64,000 nt of DNA from NCBI GenBank assembly GCA_963719085.1, contig CAVRAL010000004.1, positions 288,001 through 352,000 on the forward strand. The letters are read 5' to 3'. Position 1 is the stretch's first letter, and the number at the start of each line of letters is the position of its first letter. This DNA is from a candidate division FCPU426 bacterium. GTDB taxonomy: Bacteria; Oederibacteriota; Muellerivitia; Muellerivitales; Muellerivitaceae. Of the stretch, positions 5,531 through 46,000 are shown piece by piece. A model generated the notes under the pieces. That model had not been told where the DNA came from and ran no database searches. It was given only the letters and a program-made list of their open reading frames with translations. The position numbers were made by a program, and so were the translations under genes.

Positions 5531-6650
5531 CCGGCACCTCGATTCCAGTATTCGTCTGTCCCTGAGCGGCGGCGGGCTCTTTCGGAGGCGTTTGTCCCTT
5601 GAGGGGCAGGTTTAAATCAAAAGGAACACTGGCGGTCAAATGGAAAGCCCAGCCCCAAAACTCGTCGATCCAAGCGGATTTTATCTGGGCGTCCAATTGG
5701 ATGCCGGAGTCAAAAACCAAGTCCTTCTTCAAGCCCGCCTCCACGTAAAGCCGGCTGGAGCGGTAAAAGGACGGGTCGGTTCCTTGGGAATTATAGTTGG
5801 GGTCGCCTTCCTGGGAGAAAAAGTCTTGGGCGTTCCAATAGAGCCCGTAAAGCTCCACCCAGCTTCCCGGCGTGACCGATCCCCTGACATAAAACCCGCG
5901 GCCCCAATCCGGGCCGATATCAAATTTGCCCTCAAAGTCGCTGCTGGCGACGGCGAAAAGATCAAGCCGGCTCTTTCCCAAGAAACCCAGATCTTCCCCG
6001 ATTTTAAAACCCAGCGCGGGATTATAGTTGTTCACCACCCGGATATTGAAGATCCGGCCGCCCTCATGGTAACCGTGGAACTGCATCTGAAGGGAAGCCT
6101 TGGGGCTTAAAGCCGCGGTTAAGACTCCGCCGTAATCAAAAATCTCATCCTGCCCCGGCTGATCCACCTGCTGCCAATCCAGATAAAGATCGGTATTAAA
6201 TCCCTCGTCCTTTTCCAACCACTGAAATCCATATTCCACCGGCCGGGTAATTTCCAAGGTCTCGTTTTCCAGCGGCGCGATAAAACCGTGGCGGTTTTGG
6301 TTTTCAATCGTTCCCATGATCAGGCGGGTCGTGTCCGTGTGGTACTCAAAAGAAAGGATGGGCTTAAACTCAACCGAGGCGTTGTCCTGATTTTGGTCCT
6401 CCACGAAAAAACCCGCCCGGAAGCCCGTGACTTTCCCCGTGGAAGCGGCCAAGAGGGATGAAAATCGCTCGCCCACCAGGCTCAACCCGGAGCGGAAAGG
6501 CCCGGTAAACACCTCGTTGTCGTCGTAAAAGGACAGTTGGCTTTGGAGGATTGGCGTTGGGGTCTGGGCCTGCGCGCGCGCCGCGCTGGAATTTAAAAAA
6601 AAGAGGGTGAAAAGACCGGCGCTCAAAATTAAAACAAAACGGAAAATCAT
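5520..6650 (-). CDS. Exported hypothetical protein, probable outer-membrane beta-barrel
   Basis: Signal peptide; tandem paralog of 4403..5530. Confidence 0.65.
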   Translation of the reverse strand: MIFRFVLILSAGLFTLFFLNSSAARAQAQTPTPILQSQLSFYDDNEVFTGPFRSGLSLVGERFSSLLAASTGKVTGFRAGFFVEDQNQDNASVEFKPILSFEYHTDTTRLIMGTIENQNRHGFIAPLENETLEITRPVEYGFQWLEKDEGFNTDLYLDWQQVDQPGQDEIFDYGGVLTAALSPKASLQMQFHGYHEGGRIFNIRVVNNYNPALGFKIGEDLGFLGKSRLDLFAVASSDFEGKFDIGPDWGRGFYVRGSVTPGSWVELYGLYWNAQDFFSQEGDPNYNSQGTDPSFYRSSRLYVEAGLKKDLVFDSGIQLDAQIKSAWIDEFWGWAFHLTASVPFDLNLPLKGQTPPKEPAAAQGQTNTGIEVPDAL

Positions 6651-6761: not shown

Positions 6762-8192
6762 TTAAAAGACTAACGAGAGATTCACTCCGGCCGCGATGCC
6801 GCTCAAATCCATCGTCAGAGGCACGTAGCTGCCTCCGGGTTGAGCCGACGCGGAACCTTGGGAGCTGCCCGGGGTGGTCACGTCACCGCTCTTCGTGTCC
6901 ACCTGCAACTTGTTGTTGTTTGAATCCGTGAAGCTCGAGATGTTCAGGTAACGGAAGCCCACATAGGGTCCCAGAAGTATTTCTTTGGACAGTTTGAAAT
7001 CAACTCCCAAATTCACGTGGCCGCCAAAAGCCATTCCATTGAAATTATCGGAAAAGCCGTTGGTGGTAGGCGTATTTTCGAGGGCTTCTTTCGTGAATCC
7101 CAGGCTGACCGGCGATAATTCGCCGCCTGCCTCAATGTAGGGCACCGTATCCGAGTCCCCTAAATCAAGCCGGAAACCCAATCCCAAGTTCACCATGCTG
7201 ATGTTGTAGGTGTATTGATAGTCGTTGGTATTATCGTATATGTCGAACCATTGGTAGGTCAGGGTTCCCGCCGGCAAATAGGCGAATTCCAAGTTGACCT
7301 CGAAGTTCGGGCTGAATTGATAGTAGGGTTCAAAACCAATCGCCGCGGTCCAGGCGGGAGTTTGACCCGAAATGGAAACTCCGGTTGCCCCGCCGGGGGT
7401 TCCCGGCACCAAGCCGACCTTGGCCCCATCCTCAATCTGGCTCGGATTCGAAAGTATATTGTAAGCGCCGCCCTCGATATGAAAACCAAACCCCGGCGTA
7501 AAGCGGGGCGCGCCGCCGCCCACCATCTCCCCTTGGGAGGATTTACCCAGTTGGTCGCTCACCCACTGTTGATCATCGGAGTTCAAAGAAGCCTTATACC
7601 GGTAAGCCATGGTTTGGATCGAAGCGTTCGGGTATTTCTGATTGGCCAGGCCAAAATAAAGGGCCGCGTTTTTGTTGTCCTGGAGCATGGCGGAGGCGTA
7701 GCCCGCGTAGTAGTAAGGCTTATAGTCGTTGGGCGTATCCTGGATCGCCTGTTGGAAGAACGGCAGGGAGTCGGCGTATTGCCGCTGCTTCATGAGCGAC
7801 AAGCCCTGTTGCAGGGCCGTGGGAGTCACCACCGCGTTCGGCGAGGCTTGGCCGAGTTGAGTCTGAAGATTTTGCACGAATTGGGATAACTGGGCGTTGC
7901 TGGGATTCAAAGCCAAGGCTCTTTGATAGAAAGCCAGGGCGTCCGAGCGGCGGCCCAAAGCGTAAAAGCAATTGCCCAAACCCTGATAAGCCGGCGAGTA
8001 ATTGGGATCGATCTTGGTGGCGGCGCTGTAATACTGCGCGGCTTGAGCGTAATTGCGGGCCCCGTAAAGCTGGTTTCCAGCGGCGTAATATTGCGCGGCG
8101 GAAGCGGCTTGAGCTTGGGAAGGCCGCGGATGGCCAAGCGTGAATAACGTCAACCCGGCTAAGAACCATGCCCCCAATTTCAACCCGTGCAT
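6762..8192 (-). CDS. Exported TPR protein with probable C-terminal outer-membrane beta-barrel
   Basis: GGAGG RBS before the ATG at 8192, signal peptide, TPRs (AYQGLGNCFYALG), beta-rich C-terminus ending in Phe. Confidence 0.72.
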   Translation of the reverse strand: MHGLKLGAWFLAGLTLFTLGHPRPSQAQAASAAQYYAAGNQLYGARNYAQAAQYYSAATKIDPNYSPAYQGLGNCFYALGRRSDALAFYQRALALNPSNAQLSQFVQNLQTQLGQASPNAVVTPTALQQGLSLMKQRQYADSLPFFQQAIQDTPNDYKPYYYAGYASAMLQDNKNAALYFGLANQKYPNASIQTMAYRYKASLNSDDQQWVSDQLGKSSQGEMVGGGAPRFTPGFGFHIEGGAYNILSNPSQIEDGAKVGLVPGTPGGATGVSISGQTPAWTAAIGFEPYYQFSPNFEVNLEFAYLPAGTLTYQWFDIYDNTNDYQYTYNISMVNLGLGFRLDLGDSDTVPYIEAGGELSPVSLGFTKEALENTPTTNGFSDNFNGMAFGGHVNLGVDFKLSKEILLGPYVGFRYLNISSFTDSNNNKLQVDTKSGDVTTPGSSQGSASAQPGGSYVPLTMDLSGIAAGVNLSLVF

Positions 8193-11868: not shown

Positions 11869-12609
11869 CTACCGGACCAGCGTTCCAATGGGTTCTCCCC
11901 AAATGACGCGCTTGATGTTTTCTTTTTGCTTCAGGCTGAAAACCACGATCGGCAGCTTGTTTTCCATGCAAAGGGTCAGGGCGGTCGTGTCCATCACCCG
12001 AAGGCGGCGGTTGATGGCTTCCAGATAAGTGAGGGTCTTGAACTTTTTAGCTTTCGGGTCTTTTTTCGGGTCCGCGCTGTAGATGCCGTCCACGTTGGTG
12101 GCCTTCAAGATGGCGTCGGCGCCGATCTCGATGGCGCGAAGCGCCGCGGCCGTATCCGTGGTGAAATAGGGGTTCCCGGTTCCGCCGGCGAAAATCACGA
12201 TGCGGTTTTTTTCCAAGTGGCGCATAGCGCGGCGGCGGATGAAGGGCTCGGCGACCTTGGACATTTCAATGGCGCTTTGCACCCGGGTAAAGGCGCCGAG
12301 TTTTTCCAAGGCGTTTTGAAGGGCCAGCGCGTTGATCAGGGTGGCCAGCATGCCCATGTAGTCGCTGGAGACGCGGTCCATACCCATCTTTTCGCCGTCG
12401 GCACCGCGGTAAATGTTCCCGCCGCCGATGACCAGGGCCACCTTCACCCCGCTTTTGTGGACCCCGTATACGGCCTTGGCGATTTCTTGCACGACGACCG
12501 CGTCGATGCCGTAGCCTTGGCTGCCCGCCAGGGCCTCCCCCGAAATCTTCAACAACACTTTCTTATAGAGAGGCTTCTTTTTGGGCCCCGCGGGGGAAGA
12601 AGCCTTCAT
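11869..12609 (-). CDS. pyrH: UMP kinase
   Basis: [28 protein letters not shown]. Confidence 0.97.
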
Positions 12610-12612
12610 GGC

Positions 12613-13203
12613 TTACTCCCCGACTTGGAGCCGGGCGAACCGGCGAACCACGACGTTTTCGCCGACCTTGGCGGCCACTTCGGTGACGTATTGTTTCACG
12701 GTTTTTTTCGCTTCCCGGATATAGGGCTGTTCCAAAAGGCAAACCTGTTTGTAATAGCTCTCGATTTTGCCCTCGGCGATCTTGGTCTGCACGGCCTCGG
12801 GCTTGCCCGATTGCTTGGCTTCGTTCAGGTAAATCTCGCGTTCTTTTTCAAGCTCGGCGGCCGGGACTTCTTCCCGGGTGACGTACTTGGGGGTCGAGGC
12901 GGCCACCTGCATGGCCAACTCTTTGGCCAGGGCTTGGAAGTCGTCGGTCTTGGCCACGAAATCAGTCTCGCAGTTCAGCTCCACCATCACGCCCAATTTT
13001 CCGGCGTGCACGTAGGTCCCGATCACGCCCTGGGACGCCGCGCGCCCCGCGCGCTTGGCCACTTGGGCCGCCCCGCGCTCGCGCAGGTAGGCCACGGCCT
13101 TTTCCAAATCACCCGACGTCTCCGTCAGGGCTTTTTTACAATCCATCATGCCCGCGCCGGTCTTTTCGCGCAGGTCGCTTACCATCTTGGCGGTCACTTC
13201 CAT
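12613..13203 (-). CDS. tsf: Elongation factor Ts (short form, about 196 aa)
   Basis: [16 protein letters not shown] and [19 protein letters not shown]. Confidence 0.96.
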
Positions 13204-13252
13204 TTTGAACATCCTCCTAATAATTTGGGGGCCAAAAATCTTCAAAGGAATT

Positions 13253-13361
13253 TTTCACCACGAAGGTCGCAAAGTTCACGAAGTTAAAGAAAAACCAGCT
13301 TGTTCTTCAACTTGAAATTCTCGCCGCCTCGCTTCGTGCACTCAGTGAACTTCGTGGTAAA
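13253..13361. repeat. Intergenic imperfect palindrome, CACGAAG-unit type
   Basis: TTTCACCACGAAGGTCGCAAAGTTCACGAAG ... CTTCGTGCACTCAGTGAACTTCGTGGTAAA, between rpsB and tsf. Confidence 0.75.
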
Positions 13362-13372
13362 TATTTTTAAAC

Positions 13373-14335
13373 TTACTCGTCGCGGGTGCGCTTGGTGCGA
13401 ATCCGCTCGACTTTTTGGTTGGCCAATTCATCCGCCAAGGCGGCCACCGTGGTGATATCGCCGGCCAAGTGGCTGACGTCGGACACCAGCAGTTCGGACA
13501 CTTCTTTCTTTTCTTCCGCGACCTCGGCGGCGACTTCCTCAGCCGTTTCACCTTCGGACGGGACGCTGATTTCTTGCGCGGCGGCGGCCAAAAGCTCTTG
13601 GGCCACCTCACTGGTGGCGGAACCGCCCTCGGCGGAAACCTCGCGGCCTTCCAATTCCTTGGAACGGCCTTCCAGAATGGCGCTGGCCATGACCGAGGTC
13701 ATGAGCTTGACGGCGCGGATGGCGTCGTCGTTGCCCGGAACCACCACGTCAATTTCCTCAGGGTCGCAATTGGTGTCGACCACCGCGATGACCTTGATGC
13801 CGAGCTTGCGGGCTTCTTGGACCGCGATGTGTTCTTTCTTGGTGTCGATGACGAAGATGGCGCCCGGCAGTTTGTTCAGATTCTTGATGCCGCCCAAGGA
13901 GCGCTGCAGCTTTTCCTTGTCCTTGCCCAAGATGGCTTGTTCTTTTTTGGAACGCTTGGCCATTTCCAGGTCCGAGATGCTTTCCAATTCTTTCAGGTAG
14001 CCGATGGACTTTTTGATGGTGGCGAAGTTGGTGAGCATGCCGCCCAGCCAGCGGTAGTTGACGTAGTACATGCCGCAACGTTCAGCTTCTTCCTTAATGG
14101 CGTCTTGGGCTTGCTTCTTGGTTCCGACGAAAACAACCGTTTCGCCCGAGGCCGAGAGTTCTTTCACGTACTGATAGGCTTCTTTAAGTTTCTTGACCGT
14201 CTTTTGCAGGTCGATGATGTGGATGCCGTTGCGTTCGCCGAAAATGTAGGCGGCCATCTTGGGATTCCAGCGGCGGGTTTGATGTCCGAAATGGACACCC
14301 GCTTCCAACAATTGCTTCATCGAGACAGACATCAT
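13373..14335 (-). CDS. rpsB: 30S ribosomal protein uS2 with acidic C-terminal extension
   Basis: [36 protein letters not shown]. Confidence 0.98.
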
Positions 14336-35089: not shown

Positions 35090-35674
35090 TTAGCCTTTCG
35101 CGGCGGCGGCCGCGTCCATTTTCTCGATCTGCTGGATCGTGAATAAAATCTCGTCGTCCGTGGGCCGGTCCTGCGGATTTTGTCCCACGTACTTGAAACG
35201 GATTATTTTGGTGGGATCGATAATGACGACCGCGGGGCGGCTGATGTCTTTCCCATCGTGGCCCTGGGGATGCCGCACGCCGAAGGCGTCGATCAGCTTT
35301 AATTGGGTATCGGCCAAAAGCGGGAAAGGAAACCGCCATTGCTCATTGAAGGCCGCCGCGTCCTCGACCGGATCCACGCTCACGGCCGCGAGGGCCGCAT
35401 GCAGGGTTGAGAATTTCTCGAAATCATCCTTCAGGTTTAAAAGCTGGTTTTGGCAGGCCGAGCACCAATGGCCCCGGTAAAAAACGAGCACCAAATACCA
35501 TCCGGGTTGAAGATCGGTGGATTTAAAGAAACGGCCGTCGCAGTTCTCCAGGGTAAAATCCGGGCATTTTTGCCCCAGCCCCACCACGCCGGCGGTCGAG
35601 GAGACCGAGGAACTGGGGCCGCAACCCGCCAGTAATAGTGAGACCGCCGCCGCGAAAACGAGGGTACGCTTCAT
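35090..35674 (-). CDS. Peroxiredoxin-like (AhpC/TSA) lipoprotein
   Basis: Lipobox LLAGC, FYRGHWCSAC, FPLLAD. Confidence 0.85.
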   Translation of the reverse strand: MKRTLVFAAAVSLLLAGCGPSSSVSSTAGVVGLGQKCPDFTLENCDGRFFKSTDLQPGWYLVLVFYRGHWCSACQNQLLNLKDDFEKFSTLHAALAAVSVDPVEDAAAFNEQWRFPFPLLADTQLKLIDAFGVRHPQGHDGKDISRPAVVIIDPTKIIRFKYVGQNPQDRPTDDEILFTIQQIEKMDAAAAAKG

Positions 35675-35783: not shown

Positions 35784-35813
35784 TTGACAAACCCCGGAAG
35801 CCCTCCCAATAAT
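35784..35813 (+). promoter_or_regulatory. Sigma70-type promoter TTGACA-N18-AATAAT
   Basis: Upstream of leader ORF 1; same architecture as 40653..40682. Confidence 0.65.
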
Positions 35814-35849: not shown

Positions 35850-36137
35850 ATGTTCCGATTCCGAAAAATTTCATTTTTCATCGCCTTGCTGGGCCTCACC
35901 GCCTTCGCGTCCCTTTCGGTGGCCGAAAACTTCCATCACCACGGCGACCTGGAAAGCCACGATGACTGCGCCATGTGCAGCTGGCAACAGGTCGATTCCA
36001 AGGCCACCGTCTCCGCCGCTCCCCCACAACTGATTCCGCTATTCGCGGTTTTGGTTTTAGAGATTGTTTCTTTCCCTTGGTTTTCCTTCCGGATGGTGCA
36101 AGCTTCCGGCAGGTCCCCCCCGGTTTCCATCGCTTAA
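35850..36137 (+). CDS. DUF2946/CruR-like leader protein 1 (95 aa; HHH, CxxC, RSPP)
   Basis: N-terminal hydrophobic segment, ENFHHH, CAMC and C-terminal GRSPP; precedes the TonB-dependent receptor. Confidence 0.75.
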   Translation: MFRFRKISFFIALLGLTAFASLSVAENFHHHGDLESHDDCAMCSWQQVDSKATVSAAPPQLIPLFAVLVLEIVSFPWFSFRMVQASGRSPPVSIA

Positions 36138-36237
36138 ACTTCAATTGAGCGGGAAAACCGGGAACAGGTCTTTTTTAACCCTTTCCGTCTTTTCGTTTTA
36201 AAACCCTTAAAAGCTTGTTCCTGTTTCTTTTCCCCCG

Positions 36238-36281
36238 GAAACCACGCTTGCGCGTGGTTTCTAAATCCCTTTTTAATTTTT
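36238..36281 (+). terminator. Hairpin plus T-rich tract between leader 1 and the receptor gene (candidate attenuator)
   Basis: GAAACCACGC-TTGC-GCGTGGTTTC followed by TAAATCCCTTTTTAATTTTT. Confidence 0.5.
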
Positions 36282-36355
36282 AAATCGACCAAGACCGGCC
36301 TCGAGGTTCAAAAACCTTAAGGTTTGGCCCTAAATCCTATTTGGAGGATATTTCA

Positions 36356-38785
36356 ATGAGATTCGTTTCCCGATGGTTTTGGCTTTTGTTTCTGTGTTGG
36401 GGTTTTAATGTAAGCGTCGCCCGCGCGACAGTTGACGGCGCCATTTCAGGCACCGTTTTGGATGACAAAGGCGTCGCGGTGCCCAACGCGAAGGTGACGA
36501 TTACGGGCAACGGCACTGAAAAGGACGTGGTGTCTTCAGCGACAGGAACTTTCCAGGCCTTTCCCTTAACCCTGGGGGATTACCAGGTTCAAGTTCAAGC
36601 GGACGGCTTTAGCCCCTATCAAGAAACCGTCGCGGTTTCGGGCGGCACCTCGTCCCTGGCGGTGGTCTTGCTGCCATCCGGTGAGATGCAAATGACGGTG
36701 AAAGCCAAACATCTGGTCTCCTCCGCGCCCGACAGCAGCCGGGCGTTAAATAAAGATGATATCGCCCAACTGCCGGGAGGCTCCACGACGAACCTTCCGA
36801 AATTGCTTTATACCACCACAGCCGGATTCGTGGAGGGTGACTTCGGGCAAGTCTTTACCCGGGGCAACCACGCCAACTTGCAATACCAGATCGACGGCAT
36901 CCAATTGCCCGATTCGGTGGGCGGCTCCTTTGGGGAAGCCTTCACCCCGGTCAACATCGACCACATGGAAATTTTAACCGGCGGCCTCCAGCCGGAGTTC
37001 GGTTCCCGCATGGCCGGCGTGGTGAATATCGTCACCAAGTCGGGCGCGATCACTCCCGGCGGTGAAATCGGCCTCAGCTACGGTTCCTACAACCAGACCG
37101 CCGATTACGCCAGCTACGGAGGGTCTGACGCCTCCGGAGCTTTTCATTACTACCTCTCGGCCAATTCCTTTTCCACCGACCGCGGGTTGGACACTCCCGC
37201 GCCGGCCGACATCAACGCCGACCAGAATGGCGGGAGCGAACAGGCGGTCCATGACAAAAGCTACGGCACGGACGCTTTCTTGAAGCTTGATTGGGTGGCG
37301 GACAACTCCAACAAGTTTGACCTGATCGCCTTCAGCGAGGACAAATTTTTCCAAATCCCGGACTATCCCAGTTCCTTTGATCCGGGCGGACCCAACTTCC
37401 AGTATTTCCTCAGTTCGGGGGATATCTACGGGAACGTCGTGAACTACGTTCCTTCCACCACCAACGACACCCAAGCCGAAGCCAACAAGTACATTGAATT
37501 AGCTTGGCGGCATAACTTCGGCGACGATTCTTTCCTTCAAATAGCGCCCTATTGGAAGGAATCCAACATCACCTTCACCAACGATCCGCAGGACGATCTG
37601 GCGGCGGCCTATAACACGCAGATCCAGGATCAGAACTCGGGGACGCCGTTCAGTATTTCCTCTTTCTCCGAGGACCGCACCAGCGACAACTATGGGACGC
37701 AGGCGGATTACACCTGGCACGCGGACGCCAACAACCTGGTCAAGATCGGGGGACAGGCCCTTTTGACGCAATCTTCCGGCCCCGTTTCCGTTACGGAAGC
37801 CAATTTTGACGGAACCCCGGGAGATCCGATCACGGTGGATGGCAGTGGGGATAATTCTACCGATGTGGGTTACCAAGAAGGCCTGTACGTCCAGGACGAA
37901 ATGGATCTGGCCAAGGGGCTGGTCTTAAGCGGGGGCGTGCGCTTTGACGCCATCCAATTTACCTTCCCGGGAGCGAATTCCAACGACAGCATGCTGGAAC
38001 CCCGGGTCGGCCTCAGCCTGCTTCCGGCCGAAGGTACCAAGATCCATTTCTTTTACGGCAAGATGTTCATGCCGGCCCCGCCGGAGGATCTGCGGGACAC
38101 CTTCGTCAATTTGGGCCAAGGGAACAGTTTGACGCCTTACGACCTCAAGGCCGAGAAGGACGATTATTTCGAAACCGGAATCGCCCAGCAGGTGGACAAC
38201 CAACTGTTCACCTTGAACGCTTACTACAAATACGCGTTGAATATGCTGGATGAAAACCAGCTTTTGAACACGGCTATCGCCCAACCCTTCAACTTCGCCT
38301 CCGGCTACGCCTATGGCCTTGAATTTTCCATGCGCGGGGAACTGGCCAAGGACTGGACTGATTTCGCCAATTATTCCTACGAGATCGCTAAGGGGCAGGG
38401 AATCAGCGGCGGTATCTTCGCCTTCCCCCCGGGGACCGATTTCGAACCTGGCGTCTACCAGTTCCTGGACCATTGCCAAATCCACACAGCCAACGCCGGA
38501 TTGACCTATAACCCCGGTGATATTTGGCTCACCGCCGAAGGTCTTTTTGGAGGGGGTTTGAGCACCGGCCCGGACAACACCTTGAGACTGCCGTCCCATT
38601 TCACCATGGACGCCACGGTGGGTTACGCCTTTCAGAAAGACAGCGGCCTATCAGGGATGAAAGCCAGCCTGGACGCGCTGAATCTCTTTGATAACCCCTA
38701 CACCATCTTCGTCGCCAATGGTTACAACGGGAATCATTACGAAAACGGACGGGAATTCATCTTCCGTTTGGCCAAGGTGTTCTAA
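36356..38785 (+). CDS. TonB-dependent receptor with N-terminal carboxypeptidase-regulatory-like domain
   Basis: GGAGGA RBS, signal peptide, plug motifs (YQIDG, GVVNIVTKSG), LEPRVG, NLFD and terminal Phe. Confidence 0.93.
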   Translation: MRFVSRWFWLLFLCWGFNVSVARATVDGAISGTVLDDKGVAVPNAKVTITGNGTEKDVVSSATGTFQAFPLTLGDYQVQVQADGFSPYQETVAVSGGTSSLAVVLLPSGEMQMTVKAKHLVSSAPDSSRALNKDDIAQLPGGSTTNLPKLLYTTTAGFVEGDFGQVFTRGNHANLQYQIDGIQLPDSVGGSFGEAFTPVNIDHMEILTGGLQPEFGSRMAGVVNIVTKSGAITPGGEIGLSYGSYNQTADYASYGGSDASGAFHYYLSANSFSTDRGLDTPAPADINADQNGGSEQAVHDKSYGTDAFLKLDWVADNSNKFDLIAFSEDKFFQIPDYPSSFDPGGPNFQYFLSSGDIYGNVVNYVPSTTNDTQAEANKYIELAWRHNFGDDSFLQIAPYWKESNITFTNDPQDDLAAAYNTQIQDQNSGTPFSISSFSEDRTSDNYGTQADYTWHADANNLVKIGGQALLTQSSGPVSVTEANFDGTPGDPITVDGSGDNSTDVGYQEGLYVQDEMDLAKGLVLSGGVRFDAIQFTFPGANSNDSMLEPRVGLSLLPAEGTKIHFFYGKMFMPAPPEDLRDTFVNLGQGNSLTPYDLKAEKDDYFETGIAQQVDNQLFTLNAYYKYALNMLDENQLLNTAIAQPFNFASGYAYGLEFSMRGELAKDWTDFANYSYEIAKGQGISGGIFAFPPGTDFEPGVYQFLDHCQIHTANAGLTYNPGDIWLTAEGLFGGGLSTGPDNTLRLPSHFTMDATVGYAFQKDSGLSGMKASLDALNLFDNPYTIFVANGYNGNHYENGREFIFRLAKVF

Positions 38786-38811
38786 AGCGAAAGGTTGGGT
38801 TTAAAAGCGAC

Positions 38812-38856
38812 AAGGCAGCGCCGGTTGGGTTCAGAGCCCAACCGGCATCTTGCCCT
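38812..38856 (+). terminator. Strong hairpin after the receptor gene
   Basis: GCCGGTTGGGTT-CAG-AGCCCAACCGGC with an outer GGCA/TGCC extension. No adjacent U tract on the plus strand; an A run follows. Confidence 0.45.
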
Positions 38857-38991
38857 TCTATAAAAAAATAAATTGATAGGCAGGTATCCCTTTAGGGGTT
38901 GCCGTTTTCAAAATCCAGATTCAGCGTCATTTTTGGGTACCACCCATATGACGCCGGATGTGGTTTTTGATAACAATCAAAAGGAAAAGAA

Positions 38992-39627
38992 ATGGAACAG
39001 ATTTTCGACGGTTTTAAATTTATCTTCCGGGGCGGCTTCATGATGCTTCCCCTGCTGGCCTCCTCCCTGATCGCCCTAACGGTCATCATCGATCGTTGGA
39101 AGGTTTTCCAAAAGCAATACAAGACGCCCGAGGGCTTCCTGCTCAGGGTGTTGAAAAAAATAAGGGAAGGCAACGTGGCTGAGGCCCAAAAGGATTGTGA
39201 TGGAAAGGCCTTCCCCGTAGCGGCGGTTTTGAAAGCGGGGATCACAAACCTCAAGAGTCCCGCCGCCGAAATGGAAATCGCCATGAAGAACGAGGCCGAA
39301 AGCTGGATTCCGGTTTTGGAAAAAAGGATTCATGTCCTGGATACCATCATCACCATCGCTCCCCTGATGGGCCTCTTGGGAACTATCCTGGGAATGATGG
39401 GCTCCTTCAAGGTGCTGACCCAAAGCGGGGTGGACGACCCCTATTCGATCACCGGCGGCATCGCCGAGGCCTTGATCGCCACGGCCACCGGCATCATCAT
39501 CGCCGTGCTTTGCGTGATCGCGATGAATTATTTCAACACCCTGGTCAAAAACCTGATTTACGAGATGGAGTCGGCGGCCTCCTACCTGCAGGAAACCCGC
39601 ATGGGCTTTGAACGGGGTAAAAAATAA
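38992..39627 (+). CDS. exbB: ExbB (MotA/TolQ/ExbB family)
   Basis: APLMGLLGTILGMM and GGIAEALIATATG. Confidence 0.92.
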   Translation: MEQIFDGFKFIFRGGFMMLPLLASSLIALTVIIDRWKVFQKQYKTPEGFLLRVLKKIREGNVAEAQKDCDGKAFPVAAVLKAGITNLKSPAAEMEIAMKNEAESWIPVLEKRIHVLDTIITIAPLMGLLGTILGMMGSFKVLTQSGVDDPYSITGGIAEALIATATGIIIAVLCVIAMNYFNTLVKNLIYEMESAASYLQETRMGFERGKK

Positions 39628-40037
39628 TGCAGGTACGGCAAAAACCCATCAAACGAATCCGGATTGAGATCATCCCCATGATCGACGTCATTTTTTTCCT
39701 GTTGGTTTTTTTCATGGTGACTTCCCTGGCCATGACCCGCATCAACAGCATCAAGGTAGTGCTCCCGAAGACTTCAGGAAAAGCGGAAAATCCCCGGCAG
39801 AACGTCATCTTGACGGTGAAAAAAGACGGCTCCCTGCTCATTAACAAAACGCCTGTGACCTTAGACACCTTGGGAAGCCAGTTGGTGAGCGTGATGCAGG
39901 CCGACCCCCAAGGCGTGGTCATCGTGAACGCCGACGAGGGCGCCCCCTATGGCCAAGTCGTTCAAGCCATGCAAAAGGCCAAGGACGCCGGAGTACGGAA
40001 ATTCGCGTTGGCCGCAGAAGCCGGGGAAGGAAAATAA
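39627..40037 (+). CDS. exbD: ExbD
   Basis: IIPMIDVIFFLLVFFMV; ADEGAPYG. Confidence 0.93.
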   Translation: MQVRQKPIKRIRIEIIPMIDVIFFLLVFFMVTSLAMTRINSIKVVLPKTSGKAENPRQNVILTVKKDGSLLINKTPVTLDTLGSQLVSVMQADPQGVVIVNADEGAPYGQVVQAMQKAKDAGVRKFALAAEAGEGK

Positions 40038-40039
40038 CC

Positions 40040-40615
40040 ATGCCGATAATCCGCCTGGATTCAAATACGGAACCTCTCGTCCGGTCAGCCGGACTCGCCA
40101 TCGGCGTGGAATTTCTTTTTTTTCTGGCTCTAGGGCTAGGTCATTTGTCCCTTTTTCATAACCGCTTCGACGACGCGGTGGATGCCCAAATCGTGCAGTT
40201 ATCCGACGCTCATTTGTCCGGAGCCCAAGCCACTAGTCCCGATGATGATGTGGTTTTTAACCCCCGGCACAAACCCAAGCCGGCCAAGAAACCAACCCCT
40301 CCCAAAACCGAGCAAAACCAAGTGGACGCGGGCCCAGACCTGGGGCCCACCCACGGGCCAGTCGCGCTCTACGCGCCCCAACCCGTCATCCCCTCCTATT
40401 TAAGGGATCAAAACCTGAAGACCAGCGTGGTGATTGAATTTTTGGTCACAGCGCAAGGCCAAGTCACTTGCCGGCTTTTGGAATCCAGCGGGAGCGACGA
40501 GCTCGACGCCTTGTCGATCCAAACCGCCGAAAAATGGCGGTTCAAGCCCGCCGCCCAGGACAATGTACCCCTCGATTCCAAAACCCGATTGCGCATTTTA
40601 TTTGAGGTGGATTAA
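40040..40615 (+). CDS. tonB: TonB energy transducer
   Basis: N-terminal TM, Pro/Lys linker and SSG.ELD...KWRFKPA TonB_C domain. Confidence 0.88.
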   Translation: MPIIRLDSNTEPLVRSAGLAIGVEFLFFLALGLGHLSLFHNRFDDAVDAQIVQLSDAHLSGAQATSPDDDVVFNPRHKPKPAKKPTPPKTEQNQVDAGPDLGPTHGPVALYAPQPVIPSYLRDQNLKTSVVIEFLVTAQGQVTCRLLESSGSDELDALSIQTAEKWRFKPAAQDNVPLDSKTRLRILFEVD

Positions 40616-40652
40616 CCCTGTTTTTCACTCAACCCATGGTCCGTCCGCCGGA

Positions 40653-40682
40653 TTGACAGTGCCAGCTCCGCCCTCTAATAAT
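40653..40682 (+). promoter_or_regulatory. Sigma70-type promoter TTGACA-N18-AATAAT
   Basis: Upstream of leader ORF 2; shares GCCCTC just before the -10 with the first promoter. Confidence 0.65.
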
Positions 40683-40710
40683 GGCCCCCATCCAGAACTG
40701 GAAGAGGGCC

Positions 40711-40998
40711 ATGCGCGGTTTCAAACGTTCTTTTTTAAGATGGGGAATTTTATTTTTCCTTCCCTTCCTGATTTCAATCATGACCGTGGAAACATCCCAC
40801 CATCACAGCCCTCTGGAACCCCAGGACAACTGCTCCATTTGTAGTTGCCAGCAAACTGGTTCCCAAGCCGCCACCTTGCCACTGCCGCCGACATTGCTTC
40901 CAACCTTTATCACGGGTTTATTACTTCTAACTTTTTCTTTTATCATTCCCCCGTCCCTCATATCCTCCACGGGCAGGTCCCCGCCCGTCCTCCTGTAA
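40711..40998 (+). CDS. DUF2946/CruR-like leader protein 2 (95 aa; HHH, CxxC, RSPP)
   Basis: GAAGAGG RBS, hydrophobic N-terminus, ETSHHH, CSIC and GRSPP; paralog of 35850..36137. Confidence 0.75.
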   Translation: MRGFKRSFLRWGILFFLPFLISIMTVETSHHHSPLEPQDNCSICSCQQTGSQAATLPLPPTLLPTFITGLLLLTFSFIIPPSLISSTGRSPPVLL

Positions 40999-41037
40999 TT
41001 TTTCGAGCCGTTTTGAAAAAATACACAGGAGGAATTC

Positions 41038-42144
41038 ATGAGAATTCATCGTTTTTATTTTATTTTGGCCTCCCTTTTGGGAGTGGCTTTCGCCGGGGGG
41101 GCCCAGGCCCAAACCCGGTCGATTATCTCCAACTTGGCCAATCCGGCCATCGGCATGAGCGCGTTGTTTTTGGGCCAAGCCGCGCCGAACATCGCCGCCC
41201 CCTACGGCATTAAATTCCAGGAAGCCGAATTGAGCGTCATCTCCACCGTGGATCCTTATTGGACCCTGGCCGCCAATTTGGTGTTTGAGGGCGATCCTAA
41301 AACCGGCATTCCCGACTCGGTGTCGGCGGAAGAAGCCTACGCCACCACCGACGCCATCCCGGGAATCACGTTCAAGATCGGGGAAATCCGGGCGGATTTC
41401 GGAAAACACGGACTGCTTCACACCCACGCTTTTCCCTTCATCCAAGCCCCCATCATCATGGGCAACAGCGTGGGCCAGGAAGGCTTCAAGGACGCGGGCG
41501 TGGAAGGCGCTTGGCTGACGCCCCTGCCTTGGTACTGCGAACTGACCCTGGGCGCCTACGGATCGGTGGCGGCCTCGGGCGACCATCCGCTGAATTTCGC
41601 CGACGCCTCGCACGACAATATTCCCTACCTGATCCATCTCAAAAATCTTTTCGACGTGGATGACGACACCACGATGGAATTAGGCGGATCGGCCCTGACC
41701 GGCATGGGTGACGACGGCCTGCACCACGCCGTTTATGGCGCGGACCTGACTTTCCGCAATGTGCCGCTTCAACAATCCAACCAACGGGGATGGATTCTGC
41801 AGGGCGAGTACATCAAAAAAGTTTCCTTTGATGACAACGCCTATAACCAGGAAGCGGACGGCTGGTATACCTCGTTCCAATATCGCTTGGCCCAGGAATG
41901 GTGGACCGGCATCCGGATGGAAGAGTGCTATAACGCCACACCGGACCTGGATGTGGACTCCACGGAAAATTCACTCGCCGGCAACGTCAAGCGCGCCTCG
42001 TTCAATGTGGCTTGGCTGGCGTCGGAATTTTCGCAGGTGAAGGCCGAATATAGCTACGCCCAAAACGACGCGGGCCAGGGCGATAACCGGGTGATGCTGC
42101 AGTTTAACTATGTGATCGGATTCCATCCGCCCCACTCTTATTAG
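41038..42144 (+). CDS. His-containing outer-membrane porin-like protein of a metal uptake operon
   Basis: AGGAGG RBS, signal peptide, NPAIG, HGLLHTHAFPF, SEFS and C-terminal IGFHPPHSY. Confidence 0.75.
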   Translation: MRIHRFYFILASLLGVAFAGGAQAQTRSIISNLANPAIGMSALFLGQAAPNIAAPYGIKFQEAELSVISTVDPYWTLAANLVFEGDPKTGIPDSVSAEEAYATTDAIPGITFKIGEIRADFGKHGLLHTHAFPFIQAPIIMGNSVGQEGFKDAGVEGAWLTPLPWYCELTLGAYGSVAASGDHPLNFADASHDNIPYLIHLKNLFDVDDDTTMELGGSALTGMGDDGLHHAVYGADLTFRNVPLQQSNQRGWILQGEYIKKVSFDDNAYNQEADGWYTSFQYRLAQEWWTGIRMEECYNATPDLDVDSTENSLAGNVKRASFNVAWLASEFSQVKAEYSYAQNDAGQGDNRVMLQFNYVIGFHPPHSY

Positions 42145-42195
42145 GACGGAGCGGATTCAAAAAATTTGTGGTTTAAAAAATCAAGGAGAAAACTC

Positions 42196-43110
42196 ATGAA
42201 ACGTCTAAGCGCTTTTTTAGTGCTGCTCTTCGGTTGCTTGATCGCCTTGCCGGCTTTCGCGGATTTGAAAGTGGCCACCTCCCTTTCAGATTTGGCGTCG
42301 GTGGCCCAATTCGTGGGAGGCAAACACGTCACGGCCATCAGCCTTTGCAAAGGTTATGAGGACCCGCATTTTGTCCCGGCCAAACCCAGTTTGATGAAGG
42401 CCATCCAGGACGCCGATGTATTCGTGTCCGTGGGGCTGGAGTTGGACGGGGGCTGGCTGCCCTTGGTCATCCCCGGGAGCCGCAATCCCAAAATTCAGCC
42501 GGGCGCCGAAGGCTTCGTTGACGCCTCGGAAGGCATTGATGTTTTGGATAAGCCCGTCGGCACCGTCAGCCGGGCGGAGGGGGACATCCATCCTTTGGGC
42601 AACCCGCATTACTATGGCGACCCGAAAAATCTGGAAATCGTGGCGGATCATTTGACCCAAATTTTTTCGGATTTGGACCCGGCCAACGCGGCGGACTACG
42701 CGGCCAACGATAAGGCCTTCGACGCGAAAATGGACGCGTCGATCAAGGGCTGGGAGGCTCAGCTGGCTCCTTATAAGGGAAATTCGCTCGTGTCCTACCA
42801 CGAGAATTTCAAGTATTTCACCAACCGGTTTGGCTTGAAGGTTTTCGGAACCGTGGAGTCCAAGCCCGGCATTCCGCCGAGCCCCCGATACCTATCGGAC
42901 ACGGCCGACGCGATGAAAACCGCCGGAGTGAAGGTCGTTATCTACCAGCCTTACTATGACGCCGACGAGGCCAAGCAATTAGCGTTGAAAGCCGGGGCCA
43001 CCGCCTATGAGATTCCTAATGAAGTGGGCGGCGTTCCGGAGGCCAAGGACGTTTTCTCGAAATTCGACTTCATCGTGTCGACTTTAGTTCAAGCCTACGG
43101 GGGAAAATAA
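42196..43110 (+). CDS. Zn/Mn-type metal ABC substrate-binding protein (ZnuA family)
   Basis: DPHF, GLELD, HPLGNPHY, YH, ESKPGIPPSP. Confidence 0.92.
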   Translation: MKRLSAFLVLLFGCLIALPAFADLKVATSLSDLASVAQFVGGKHVTAISLCKGYEDPHFVPAKPSLMKAIQDADVFVSVGLELDGGWLPLVIPGSRNPKIQPGAEGFVDASEGIDVLDKPVGTVSRAEGDIHPLGNPHYYGDPKNLEIVADHLTQIFSDLDPANAADYAANDKAFDAKMDASIKGWEAQLAPYKGNSLVSYHENFKYFTNRFGLKVFGTVESKPGIPPSPRYLSDTADAMKTAGVKVVIYQPYYDADEAKQLALKAGATAYEIPNEVGGVPEAKDVFSKFDFIVSTLVQAYGGK

Positions 43111-43115
43111 GCGCC

Positions 43116-43940
43116 ATGTCCAACTTTATCGAGGTGATGGGTCTTCCGATTTTGGCCTGCTTGCTCCTCGGCCTCATCCTGCCCTCCTTGGGCCAGCATG
43201 TGCTGGCCCGGGGAGTCATTTTCGTGGACTTGGCCTTGGCTCAAATAGCGGCGCTGGGACAAAGCGTGGCCTTTTTGTTGGGGGCCGACCCCCATGATCC
43301 GGCCACCTACTATTGGTCCCTGGGATTCACCCTATTGGGCGCGGCCCTTTTTAGTTTTTTGTGGGACCGCAACCATTCGGTTTTTCAGGAGGCCTTTATC
43401 GGAATCGCCTTCTCCCTGGCGACGGCGGCCACCCTGTTGGTCTTGTCCAATTCCCCCCACGGCGCCGAGCACGTGCAGGGAACCTTGAGCGGGGAAAGCC
43501 TGGGCTGGGTCGCTTGGAAAGACGTGGCGCTGATGGCGGTCATTTACGCCCTCGTCGGCCTGTTTCTTTTTTTCAACCGCCAGACCTTGGCGCTTTGTTC
43601 CGCCGACCCCAAAGAGGCCCAAAAGCAGGGACTGTCCCTGAAACTTTGGGATTTCCTTTTTTACGCGGGCTTCGGGCTGGTCGTGACCGACGCGGTTCGG
43701 GTTTCGGGCGTGCTGGCGGTCTTTTCGTTTCTGATCGTGCCGATCGTCTGTTCGACCCTTTTGGGCATGAAAGGAAGACCGCGGCTTTACCTGGCCTGGG
43801 GATTGGCGTGGCTGGCTTCGATCATCGGGTCCGGGTTTTCCTATTGGAAGGACTGGCCCATGGGCGCCACCATCGTGTGCGTATTCGGGCTATCGGTGAT
43901 TGTTATCTCGGCCTTCACAAGAATGAGAAACGTCGAATAG
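43116..43940 (+). CDS. Metal ABC permease (ABC-3/ZnuB family)
   Basis: RGVIFVDLALAQIAALG and GVLAVFSFLIVP. Confidence 0.88.
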   Translation: MSNFIEVMGLPILACLLLGLILPSLGQHVLARGVIFVDLALAQIAALGQSVAFLLGADPHDPATYYWSLGFTLLGAALFSFLWDRNHSVFQEAFIGIAFSLATAATLLVLSNSPHGAEHVQGTLSGESLGWVAWKDVALMAVIYALVGLFLFFNRQTLALCSADPKEAQKQGLSLKLWDFLFYAGFGLVVTDAVRVSGVLAVFSFLIVPIVCSTLLGMKGRPRLYLAWGLAWLASIIGSGFSYWKDWPMGATIVCVFGLSVIVISAFTRMRNVE

Positions 43941-44482: not shown

Positions 44483-44884
44483 TTAAAGCCCTAAAAATAA
44501 TTTCAATCGACGGCGAATTTCATCTCTTACTTCCTGGAAGCTTTTTAGCTTTTCTTCATCCGTCGTGGCTCCCTTTCCAGGGTCGGGCAGCGGCCAATGA
44601 ATTCTTTCAGCCTTCCCTAAGAAAACTGGACATTCTTCCTCGGCGCAAAGGGTGATAACCGTATCCACCGTCGCCGGGTCGATCTCGGCCACGGACTTGG
44701 AAGTCTGGCCGGAAATATCGATTCCGATTTCGGCCAGGGCCTTGATTGATAAAGGATTCACGAAAGACGGCTTGGAACCGGCGCTTTGAATCAGGCCTTT
44801 ATCGCCCAAAAGATGCTTGGCGATGCCTTCCGCCATCTGGCTGCGGCCCGAATTGGCCACACAAAGAAAAAGAATTTTTTTCAA
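44483..44884 (-). CDS. arsC: Arsenate reductase ArsC (thioredoxin-coupled, LMW-PTP fold)
   Basis: [13 protein letters not shown] (CX5R), [17 protein letters not shown]. Confidence 0.88.
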
Positions 44885-44887
44885 GGC

Positions 44888-45571
44888 CTACTCCTTGTTG
44901 TTTTTCAAGTTGGCGGGCGCCAGCCGGATCGACTCATAAAACAACGCGGCAAGAACCGCCCCAAGACAAGGCCCTACCACATAAATCCACGTCCCATTCA
45001 AATGTCCCTCAAAGACCGCGGGGGCCAGGGACCGTGCCGGATTCATGGAAGCCCCCGTGACCGGCCCACCCACCCAGGCCGCTAGCATGACAGTTCCGCC
45101 AATCGCCGCGCCCGCCATGGTGCCGACCGCGCGGGTATCCGTGGCCACCGCCACAATCACGAACATCAGAAAAAAGGTCAGGATCATTTCCCAGCTCAAA
45201 GCTTGCCCATTCGGCACGGCGGGAATGGTGGCTCCATAAGAAACACCGGATGGAAGAATCATTTTGAGGATGCCGATAGCGGCAAAAGCCCCGATGAGTT
45301 GAGCGGCCCAATAGGCCAAAACCTGCTCAAAGGGAAAGTGGCGGGCTACGGCGAAGGCCAAGGTCACGGCGGGATTGAAGTGGGCTCCCGAAATATGCCC
45401 CACCGCGTAAATCATGACCGCCACCGCCAACCCAAAAATAACCGGTACGACCGCCTGCGAAAGGGTCCCCGGAAACCGCTCCGCGACCATGAGGCTTCCG
45501 CATCCGGCGAAGACGAGGGTAAAGGTCCCCATGGCCTCGGCCAGGGACTTCTTAAGAAGGATATTCTTCAT
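44888..45571 (-). CDS. MIP family aquaporin, NIP-like (probable arsenite channel)
   Basis: GHISGAHFNPAVT and GASMNPARS NPA boxes; VATDTRAVG resembles plant NIPs; adjacent to arsC. Confidence 0.9.
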   Translation of the reverse strand: MKNILLKKSLAEAMGTFTLVFAGCGSLMVAERFPGTLSQAVVPVIFGLAVAVMIYAVGHISGAHFNPAVTLAFAVARHFPFEQVLAYWAAQLIGAFAAIGILKMILPSGVSYGATIPAVPNGQALSWEMILTFFLMFVIVAVATDTRAVGTMAGAAIGGTVMLAAWVGGPVTGASMNPARSLAPAVFEGHLNGTWIYVVGPCLGAVLAALFYESIRLAPANLKNNKE

Positions 45572-45607
45572 CTCCAACTAGCTCGCGTTTGCAAGTTGAT
45601 CCCCCTA

Positions 45608-45982
45608 TTACTTTTTCTTCCCCACCCACTCGCCCAAAACCGACTTCAATTTCTTTTTCATGCCCTGAAGTTCCTGGATTTTCCCCTCAAACTCATCGAT
45701 CTTGGCGGTGAACAAGTCCACCGTCAGGTCGCAACAGGGGCCCAGACCCTTGTCCCCGCAACAGGTGATTTTCTTTATTTCTTTGAGCGTCAGCCCCATG
45801 GCTTGGGCTTTGCGGATGAACTCCAATTGGTCCACCGCTTCCTTGGGATAAATCCGAAAGCCGCCTTCGCTCCGGGAAGGCTCGTTCAGCAGCCCCTCTT
45901 TTTCGTAATAGCGGATCGTATCGATGGACGTCCCGCTTTTTTGGGCCACTTGACCGATTTGAAGGAATGGATTTTTTTTCAT
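45608..45982 (-). CDS. MerR-family transcriptional regulator with CC...CC motif
   Basis: IGQVA..TIRYYEKEGLL..RSEGGFRIY..FIRKAQAMGLTLKEI; TCCGDKGLGPCCD. Confidence 0.92.
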   Translation of the reverse strand: MKKNPFLQIGQVAQKSGTSIDTIRYYEKEGLLNEPSRSEGGFRIYPKEAVDQLEFIRKAQAMGLTLKEIKKITCCGDKGLGPCCDLTVDLFTAKIDEFEGKIQELQGMKKKLKSVLGEWVGKKK

Positions 45983-46000
45983 GGCGTCAGCTCCCAAACG

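Follow-up and report, generated by a model that had tools for sequence, protein, structure and literature searches.

Metal-sensing arrest leaders, namely CruR and CutF, were described in 2022–2025 and have been studied for copper only and in Proteobacteria only; statements made here about published systems draw on parts of the cited sources. CruR (Bp2923, 145 aa), a DUF2946 protein of Bordetella pertussis, heads a TonB-dependent-transporter operon and carries CXXC and RAPP motifs 45 residues apart. Mutation of RAPP removes downstream expression, mutation of CXXC removes copper control and the presence of 5 extra spacer residues impairs control, and in the published model copper relieves the arrest and Rho then terminates in a 162-nt spacer (PMC9426467). 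Arrest of CruR in vitro places the third and fourth RAPP codons (Pro-Pro) in the P and A sites, and upstream open reading frames (uORFs) with RAPP or RGPP precede TonB-dependent receptors (TBDRs) and copper genes (PMC12992588). CutF of Rhodobacter capsulatus is exported and stalls at a C-terminal Pro repeat when Cu binds its periplasmic CxxxC (bioRxiv 10.1101/2025.02.05.636593), and CutF-like proteins group into 29 clusters whose sites consist of Cys, of His or of both, some His-only clusters being tied to Ni/Co genes (PMC9973294). Here, we examine a 64,000-nt stretch of DNA (the window) from a candidate division FCPU426 bacterium (GenBank assembly GCA_963719085.1, contig CAVRAL010000004.1, positions 288,001–352,000, forward strand), in which two open reading frames (ORFs) of 95 aa, leaders A and B, each head an operon of metal-uptake type. 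The best overall explanation, and one that we consider likely, is that they are paralogous CruR/CutF (DUF2946-like) regulatory uORFs that control these uptake operons.

A sequence-only reading of this DNA had proposed that the two ORFs encode leaders that sense a periplasmic metal through ribosome arrest; what it observed is confirmed here, and its interpretation is partly supported. Both ORFs translate as claimed (Table 1) and their products are homologous, sharing 39 % identity over 76 residues (BLASTP, E 8e-13). Each has an N-terminal basic and hydrophobic segment, the string E-x2-HHH-x2-LE-x2-D-x-C-x2-C-S-x-QQ, a second hydrophobic stretch and a near-terminal GRSPPV, all as had been reported. 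The CxxC is C40-x2-C43 in leader A and C41-x2-C44 in leader B, and the distance from the second Cys to the Arg is the same in both, 45 positions with 44 intervening residues (C43/R88 and C44/R89, correctly placed in the earlier reading). This fixed spacing is within one residue of the 45 of CruR (PMC9426467). The motif lies 4 (leader A) and 3 (leader B) residues before the C-terminus and reads RSPP in place of RAPP, a variant documented, like RDPP, as a 'partially permissive' substitute for arrest in ApdA/ApdP and underrepresented in proteomes (PMC12992588). Peptides of the RAPP-like arrest type are small exported or membrane proteins that are encoded 5′ of the gene they regulate and have R-[AGSD]-P-P close to their C-terminus (PMC12992588). 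Both products fit this description, and both are encoded by the first gene of an operon that includes a TonB-dependent transporter or other metal genes. The combination of CxxxC and an EF-P-sensitive PPP that marks CutF was not found, as leaders A and B have CxxC and a PP pair.

The likeness to CruR extends to the small first gene of a TonB-dependent-transporter operon, a possible N-terminal export signal, CxxC, a spacing of about 45 residues and a near-terminal R-x-P-P, and also to a long C-rich spacer (leader A) and to the expected polarity, in which metal would relieve the stall and shut off uptake. The leaders differ from CruR in length (95 versus 145 aa), in having RSPP rather than RAPP and an HHH 11 residues before CxxC, in scoring below the Pfam threshold and in their non-proteobacterial host. 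Leader B, moreover, is followed by a sequestered Shine–Dalgarno (SD) sequence in a 39-nt spacer rather than by a region of Rho termination, and the cargo is of zinc type, not copper type. Leaders A and B are very probably regulatory arrest leaders.

Though both leaders match only one Pfam family, DUF2946 (PF11162), their scores of 17.5 (A) and 16.2 (B) bits, or 16.8 and 14.6 bits in a genome-wide scan, fall below the gathering cut-off of 23.7. The alignment covers model positions 50–117 of 117, the C-terminal part with CxxC and RAPP, and the proposed relationship to DUF2946 thus held for this part of the model and not for the score. NCBIfam includes no family for either leader. A first homologue search gave 11 close relatives at E≤0.01 among 23 candidates, and GRSPP does not vary among the 13 sequences aligned (close relatives and leaders). 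When a profile of the close relatives was run against 1.84 billion cluster representatives, 106 matches at E≤0.001 were obtained, mostly of 85–108 aa. Both motifs are present in 104 of these, the other two being a 61-aa fragment and an 80-aa protein; no match was discarded. The C-terminal motif in the 104 is RAPP (51), RSPP (35), RGPP (7), RDPP (4) or RCPP (1), with a non-Arg residue before [S/G]PP in the remaining 6. It lies 0–7 residues from the C-terminus in 103, and the CxxC-to-motif spacing is 42–47 residues (44 in 38 representatives, 45 in 32; the script measured the six non-Arg members one residue short). The His motif is HHH in 84, H-x-H in 16, HH in 3 and missing in 1, and in 63 of the 84, HHH begins 11 residues ahead of the first Cys. 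Conservation of HHH, CxxC, spacing and R[SAG]PP in relatives, on which the earlier proposal depended, was thus borne out, and the recurrence of these features in 104/106 representatives and in the 56 related leader ORFs described below exceeds chance. The suggestion that the His triad is an addition peculiar to this pair did not survive, as representatives with RAPP also have HHH. Only 2 of the 106 representatives reach the DUF2946 gathering score (33.7 and 23.9 bits), though 71 of 95 aligned members match the model at E≤1 (best 6.9e-8), and the one representative that scores well above the Pfam cut-off, used as the seed of a further homologue search, found no sequence but itself. Judged by these profile scores, the leaders belong to a large clade at the periphery of DUF2946, most of which its threshold misses, and because of the sub-threshold scores we call them DUF2946-like and do not file them as members of the Pfam family.

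An AlphaFold2 model of leader A (alignment of 95 sequences; mean pLDDT 84, pTM 0.43) has helices at residues 2–28, 41–50 (beginning at CxxC) and 61–73 and an extended C-terminus. The first helix is hydrophobic and, in the leaders, is preceded by basic residues and followed by an SVA/E junction. This arrangement agrees with an N-terminal signal or anchor helix, then a loop with the His and Cys residues, then a second hydrophobic helix, which at the stall would not yet have left the exit tunnel. It could also be read as two helices flanking a His/Cys loop in a functional bitopic membrane protein, for example a periplasm-facing metal chaperone, in which RSPP would not be an arrest site and the RNA helix described below would only couple translation; the products are conserved over their whole length within subgroups, and a thiol-oxidoreductase lipoprotein recurs as a neighbour. 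We consider this improbable. Across the 95 aligned members only H29, C40, C43, P90 and P91 are invariant (H31 and R88 nearly so) and mean column identity is 22 %, a pattern more in keeping with a sensor-plus-arrest design than with a folded protein. The spacing of 42–47 residues and a motif 0–7 residues from the C-terminus match the published arrest leaders, and R[AGSD]PP motifs are otherwise avoided in proteomes (PMC12992588). As to the codons, AGG for the Arg, pointed out earlier for the pair, is indeed used in both leaders, but among related leaders the codon varies (AGG 24, CGG 12, CGT 9, CGC 5, AGA 1, CGA 1). The Arg, Ser/Ala and Pro codons vary synonymously among the 56 leaders, indicating selection on the peptide residue and not on the codon.

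In the genome from which the window derives (3.04 Mb, 99 % complete), the profile matches exactly two copies, leaders A and B. Leaders were found in 35 of 99 genomes of the phylum (this genome counted): 27 of the 30 genomes of its own taxonomic family, one of one, one of four and five of eight in other families, and zero elsewhere. Relatives often have two to six copies, the maximum being six, and these often lie about 5 kb apart. An operon survey of 40 related stretches and the window piece gave 56 leader ORFs, in which the motif is RSPP (29), RAPP (20), RGPP (2) or one of several single other forms. Gene calls in the relatives are crude (longest ORFs first, with phmmer comparison to the window proteins), and stretch L058, with ORF length limited to 260 aa, gave no leader. 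The placement of leaders before metal-uptake operons, which the sequence-only reading had noted for the pair, is seen across many of these genomes. A leader precedes OMP (outer-membrane protein)-ZnuA-ZnuB in 20 loci and in 4 more where the caller missed the OMP, with spacers of 15–136 nt, mostly 44–50 nt, and the OMP gene is always the first gene after leaders of this class. In 14 loci a leader precedes a TBDR gene, usually with ExbB-ExbD-TonB, and the spacers are 98–304 nt, one miscalled start aside. In about eight, it precedes genes for an ATP-binding-cassette (ABC) ATPase, an FtsX/MacB_PCD permease, a 160-aa protein and one to three DUF3299 proteins, with spacers of 151–191 nt; loci noted for this split MacB-type class are L066 (3072–7331), L070, L073, L065, L068, L069, L072, L054 and L077. 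The remaining leader loci are unclassified or miscalled. PA4066 we take to be a DUF3299 protein. The third class resembles PA4063–PA4066, a Zur-regulated split MacB system (PMC11481552). Its 162-aa protein has no credible match among PDB sequences, and the only match there of the DUF3299 protein is the 'hypothetical protein' 4hsp (E 0.0057). DUF3299 had no match in the genome of the window, but a control search matched nowhere either, so this is no evidence of absence.

RAPP-type copies with the same twin layout are present on three contigs of metagenome-assembled genomes labelled Syntrophobacteraceae or 'delta proteobacterium'. One has leader-OMP-ZnuA-(ATPase)-ZnuB followed by leader-TBDR, another has leader-TBDR-ExbB-ExbD-TonB followed by leader-OMP-ZnuA-ZnuB, and the twin arrangement is thus a conserved design and not peculiar to the window. 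A metagenome scan added two further loci only. At L076, two identical leaders, 5909–6202 (−) and 6960–7253 (+), face away from each other and each is followed by the same 92-aa ORF and a TBDR gene, which may be an inverted duplication or an assembly artefact. At L066, about 1 kb separates a leader-OMP-ZnuAB operon from a downstream Cas1 gene (12344–13384).

Table 1. Features of the leader A and leader B region, in window coordinates
Feature	Position	Strand	Details or basis
AhpC/TSA-fold lipoprotein, WCSAC motif, divergent from leader A	35090..35674	−	Pfam
Promoter-like site of leader A, TTGACA-18-AATAAT, 11 of 12	35784..35813	+	Consensus scan
Leader A, 95 aa	35850..36137	+	HHH 35934-35942, CxxC 35967-35978, RSPP 36111-36122, stop 36135-36137
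Predicted hairpin, CCGGUU...AACCGG, codons from second Pro of RSPP and first bases after stop	36119..36162	+	Centroid fold
Predicted 11-bp hairpin in 218-nt spacer, U-rich runs about 9 nt later	36237..36262	+	Fold and alignment
TonB-dependent receptor, N-terminal CarboxypepD_reg	36356..38785	+	Pfam: TonB_dep_Rec_b-barrel 8e-27, Plug, CarboxypepD_reg
ExbB	38992-39627	+	Pfam
ExbD	39627-40037	+	Pfam
TonB	40040-40615	+	Pfam
Promoter-like site of leader B, TTGACA-18-AATAAT, 11 of 12	40653..40682	+	Consensus scan
Leader B, 95 aa	40711..40998	+	HHH 40798-40806, CxxC 40831-40842, RSPP 40975-40986, stop 40996-40998
Predicted anti-SD UCCUCCUGU, Val-Leu-Leu-stop codons of leader B	40988..40996	+	RNA fold and conservation
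SD ACAGGAGGA of the 41038 gene, pairs with anti-SD UCCUCCUGU	41025..41033	+	RNA fold and conservation
368-aa outer-membrane protein, signal peptide, no Pfam match	41038..42144	+	Porin-like (lead)
ZnuA-family binding protein	42166-43110	+	Pfam
ABC-3 permease (ZnuB)	43116-43940	+	Pfam

In the window, the order of genes is as had been described, leader A preceding TBDR-ExbB-ExbD-TonB and leader B preceding a porin-like OMP, ZnuA and ZnuB. The true start of the TBDR gene is probably ATG 36356, and the receptor has no specific NCBIfam equivalog. For the product of the 41038 gene, the nearest language-model features are those of 'putative Porin' (BBP2 in 33 % of members), which is a lead only. The ZnuA gene is the sole ZnuA-family gene of the genome. 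No ATPase gene follows the ABC-3 permease gene, and when the genome was searched for a ZnuC-like ATPase, the matches were all generic ABC ATPases (31–39 % identity). The Syntrophobacteraceae locus L004 carries an ATPase between ZnuA and ZnuB, the best match to which in this genome (34 % identity) is on another contig (G000:C5:98940-99596). The lipoprotein gene divergent from leader A has counterparts, in that an AhpC/TSA gene is divergently upstream of the leader in 11 related loci and L081, and AhpC_TSA is listed among DUF2946 neighbours (PMC9426467). The WCSAC lipoprotein may keep periplasmic thiols reduced, possibly including the CxxC of the leader. Beyond the second operon lies an arsenic-type cluster on the opposite strand (44483–45997), made up of genes for a MerR-family regulator with a C-terminal Cys cluster (45608–45997), a MIP-family channel (44888–45577) and a low-molecular-weight phosphatase/ArsC-like protein (44483–44884).

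Each leader has its own promoter-like site. Only two sigma-70-like sites were found between 35500 and 41200, and they are identical and each just 5′ of a leader; their number does not exceed the mean of 3.3 in shuffled sequence, and what carries weight is their placement and identity. A similar site about 25 nt before the start is present in relatives, in 21/56 at 11/12 and in 33/56 at ≥10/12. Longer frames (206 aa from 35517 and 105 aa from 40681) were rejected, since the family alignment begins at the Met of the 95-aa product, and they are also ruled out by promoter-like sites that end at 35813 and 40682. The leader B site would place the transcript start 3′ of the upstream ATG at 40681, which makes 40711 the start codon. 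A 15-nt inverted repeat (87 % complementary, 2-nt gap) occupies 40681–40712, from the predicted transcript start to the start codon of leader B, and spans the leader's own SD; the fold of this 5′ untranslated region is −17.9 kcal/mol, and the repeat is not kept in relatives (folds of 0 to −9.6 kcal/mol).

The promoters bear on the question of whether the operons are mainly under transcriptional control, by a Fur-family (Zur-like) or other repressor, with the leaders adding little. The earlier statement that no Zur, Fur or NikR gene is present holds for the window, where Fur-family and NikR genes were searched for and none was found. It does not hold genome-wide for the Fur family, as two Fur-family genes lie elsewhere; NikR_C has no match in the genome. 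In several relatives (L044, L045, L046, L049, L050 and L051), the −35 hexamer lies inside a palindrome, TTGACATTGTCAA, which could be an operator for a transcription factor there. Set against this, neither window promoter has TTGACATTGTCAA or an AT-rich inverted repeat of Fur/Zur type, the two Fur-family genes adjoin peroxiredoxin- or thioredoxin-like genes and not znu genes, and a repressor would leave unexplained the conserved motif spacing and the helix between leader B and the downstream SD. Hence, we give mainly transcriptional control little credence.

For the 121 nt around the end of leader B, the predicted fold has −32.4 kcal/mol (z −4.57), and none of 200 shuffles was as stable. The last codons of the leader, UCCUCCUGU, pair with the SD of the 41038 gene, and single-sequence folds show the same pairing in almost every OMP-class locus. 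When 19 of the 20 OMP-class loci were aligned (L045, with the 136-nt spacer, was left out), the 9-bp helix was paired in 85.4 % of cells, a count that a one-base register shift in some loci lowers, and in no more than 52 % with the 3′ side slid by 1–3 columns. Pair 33:82 is GC in 10 loci and UA in 4, and the observed covariation score was attained in none of 500 shuffles. This evidence is moderate and not decisive, because the SD side is functionally constrained and the sequences are related. The helix explains the frequent -NLL or -ILL tails of the peptides. If the first Pro codon (40981–40983) is in the P site, as in CruR, the anti-SD extends from +7 to +15 counted from the first base of that codon and would be within the mRNA under the ribosome. 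Ribosomes cover mRNA to about +12 to +15 from the first base of the P-site codon. As with CutF, leader B is a DUF2946-like leader, possibly exported, with a stem-loop that shields the downstream ribosome-binding site (RBS) next to a proposed near-C-terminal stall site and within reach of a ribosome stalled there (PMC9973294; bioRxiv 10.1101/2025.02.05.636593). We think it reasonably likely that the output of leader B is SD unmasking, of CutF/SecM type rather than of the Rho type of CruR.

CutF itself differs in its CxxxC and EF-P-sensitive PPP, in being stalled and not released by Cu, and in controlling a detoxifying oxidase rather than importers (bioRxiv 10.1101/2025.02.05.636593). Were leaders A and B to share the polarity of CutF, which likewise has an RBS-shielding stem-loop, metal binding would induce the stall and the operons would be on at metal excess. 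As the genes controlled are for uptake components (TBDR, TonB complex and ZnuA-type importer), such induction would be counter-productive, and CruR, which heads an uptake transporter, has the opposite polarity (PMC9426467). The CutF polarity is thus most doubtful here, and that metal relieves the stall is somewhat favoured. A C-terminal R-x-P-P/G core, arrest of an exported chain that is sensitive to pulling force, and RBS unmasking are likewise features of SecM, ApdA and ApdP, which differ in that they monitor Sec or YidC activity and are not known to carry a metal-binding site (PMC10951233 and PMC10987492, as cited in PMC12992588).

For leader A, alignment and masking did not reveal an RBS-shielding stem-loop of the CutF type, and masking support for SD unmasking in its class is weak. 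A predicted hairpin formed by the last codons and the bases after the stop would lie under a ribosome stalled at RSPP. The sequence GCGGGAAAAUCGG after the leader A stop is conserved in 4 close relatives. The spacer to the TBDR gene is 218 nt long, C-rich and G-poor (GC skew −0.27 to −0.33 over 36160–36340), resembling the described rut region of CruR (PMC9426467). In an alignment of leader A and three close relatives (80 % identity), this hairpin, the 11-bp hairpin further on (alignment columns 133–164, paired in 3–4 of 4 sequences) and a third are conserved. We infer that a stalled ribosome alters folding of, or Rho access to, this spacer. An intrinsic terminator was considered and rejected, as a consensus scan calls none and some 9 nt separate the stem from the U-runs. 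RNAalifold pairs the codons after RSPP with the TBDR SD over a long range, and this too was rejected (weak, four sequences, no net covariation). In another TBDR subgroup, with SILL* tails, single-sequence folds suggest a four-segment relay of leader end, CAGGGGGAU, AAAAUCCC and SD; it was not adopted, since masking support is weak and leader A belongs to a different subgroup, and a tiny ORF inside the relay hairpin was dropped because its start codon is missing in 2/7 loci.

Taken together, these features suggest the following mechanism. Each leader would be transcribed from its own strong, probably constitutive promoter, and the N-terminal helix would target the nascent peptide for export, so that HHH-x8-CxxC would be outside the ribosome when Arg-Ser-Pro-Pro, 44 residues later, is reached. 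RSPP and the hydrophobic stretch in the exit tunnel would then arrest elongation while the two Pro codons occupy the P site (first) and the A site (second). At leader B, the stalled ribosome would sit on the anti-SD and free the SD, permitting translation of porin-ZnuA-ZnuB. At leader A, it would cover the 5′ arm of the hairpin that starts in the Pro-Val-Ser codons, and the resulting change in folding or Rho accessibility of the conserved C-rich spacer would allow TBDR-ExbBD-TonB to be expressed. Metal, when present, would bind the His/Cys site of the nascent chain, and folding or pulling would release the arrest, upon which the ribosome would terminate, the helix re-form and uptake be switched off.

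A number of observations weigh against parts of this account. The SD stays paired when only a 28-nt ribosome footprint is masked, because other C/U-rich segments of the leader replace the anti-SD; for 20 OMP-class loci the mean unpaired probability moves from 0.07 to 0.12, and for 12 TBDR-class loci from 0.13 to 0.12. A wider mask, in which everything 5′ of the front edge of the stalled ribosome is made unavailable as a model of queued ribosomes, was tried with several front edges; it opens the OMP-class SD only in part (0.07 to 0.36 at edge +15, with 0.04 at a control edge 30 nt upstream), which is partial support for unmasking in the leader B class, and has a weak effect on the TBDR class (0.12 to 0.26, control 0.18). 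Four residues follow PP in most relatives, where a stalled ribosome would cover only part of the anti-SD. In the leader A spacer, the alignment consists of four close sequences with 2 compensatory pairs and an unfavourable covariation term (+1.31), and the hairpin is not a canonical terminator. The signal peptide of CruR is dispensable (PMC9426467), and periplasmic sensing is thus not a given. The low DUF2946 scores of the leaders and of all but two representatives count here too, as do the two Fur-family genes, which could add transcriptional control.

Other contrary points concern the metal. The best NCBIfam match of ZnuA is AztC, at 90 bits, far below the cut-off of 350. CxxC is a classical Cu(I) motif, and both studied members of the DUF2946 type sense Cu (PMC9426467; bioRxiv 10.1101/2025.02.05.636593). 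A NicO gene follows ZnuB in L039 (6197–7237), genes for NikR, a second TBDR and a ZnuA-like protein lie downstream of the leader operon in L070 (11754–15228), and MerC-like and CDF genes lie near leaders (L065 9065–9475, L073 12585–13001, L074 16115–16525, L063 8319–9263 and L076 12119–13072). Together with the His-rich CutF-like clusters that are tied to Ni/Co genes (PMC9973294), these points would be accounted for if the leaders worked as proposed but sensed copper, nickel or cobalt and not zinc, which we regard as rather unlikely. Scanning of 55 neighbour proteins (30 + 25) revealed no copper-chaperone, PCuAC, YcnI, CopC, PepSY, Sco or multicopper-oxidase family, and, as noted, NikR_C has no match in this genome. 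The best matches of ZnuA are Zn-binding proteins, both AztC, for all its low score, and those among PDB sequences (3cx3, 7lm5-7, 1pq4/2ov1 and 3gi1/3hjt), with His aligned at three positions in the printed alignment. We take these three His to be the metal ligands in the matched structures. The three operon classes, moreover, parallel members of the proteobacterial Zur regulon, which includes a ZnuA-type importer (ZnuABC), Zn-regulated TBDRs with a TonB system, and a split MacB ABC system with an accessory protein (PA4063–PA4066/ZrgABCDE); there a trans-acting repressor works at the promoters, whereas here each operon has a leader in cis (PMC11481552). It is therefore likely that the metal sensed is zinc, nickel or cobalt and not copper, and the chances that it is Zn(II) in particular are about even.

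We found no paper tying an arrest leader to ZnuA or to zinc uptake. Neither 'zinc' nor 'ZnuA' occurs in the main text of PMC9426467, PMC9973294 or PMC12992588, or in the supplementary text searched for the first two; further supplements, for instance neighbour tables, could bear on this. The kind of system is thus known from CruR and CutF, and the variant appears not to be in print: a His3-Cys2 site with R[SA]PP, zinc-type cargo, two to six copies, an SD-unmasking output combined with uptake polarity, and hosts outside Pseudomonadota.

The clade is largely missed by the Pfam threshold, has a His3-Cys2 site and often RSPP, and its operon partners are ZnuA-type importers, TonB systems and MacB/DUF3299 transporters, not copper genes. 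The fullest reading, which we hold only tentatively, is of a cis-acting zinc regulon without a dedicated Zur, in which a Cys2-His3 site would fold round Zn(II) and pull the exported chain out of RSPP arrest, up to six operons per genome would each read the metal at their own ribosome, and the outputs would be SD unmasking and spacer remodelling. If so, these leaders would be a counterpart in nature to the engineered zinc-finger/SecM force sensors and, among arrest peptides, the first to sense zinc. If the proposed mechanism is true, nascent-chain metal sensing would be extended to zinc-type uptake, a CruR-like polarity would be joined to a CutF/SecM-like RNA output, and leaders A and B would be two compact switches, open to testing, for which the effects of mutation can be clearly predicted (Arg, Pro-Pro, Cys, His, spacer length, and anti-SD with compensatory changes). 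Annotation would gain as well, since such 95-codon genes are now listed as 'hypothetical protein' or left uncalled.

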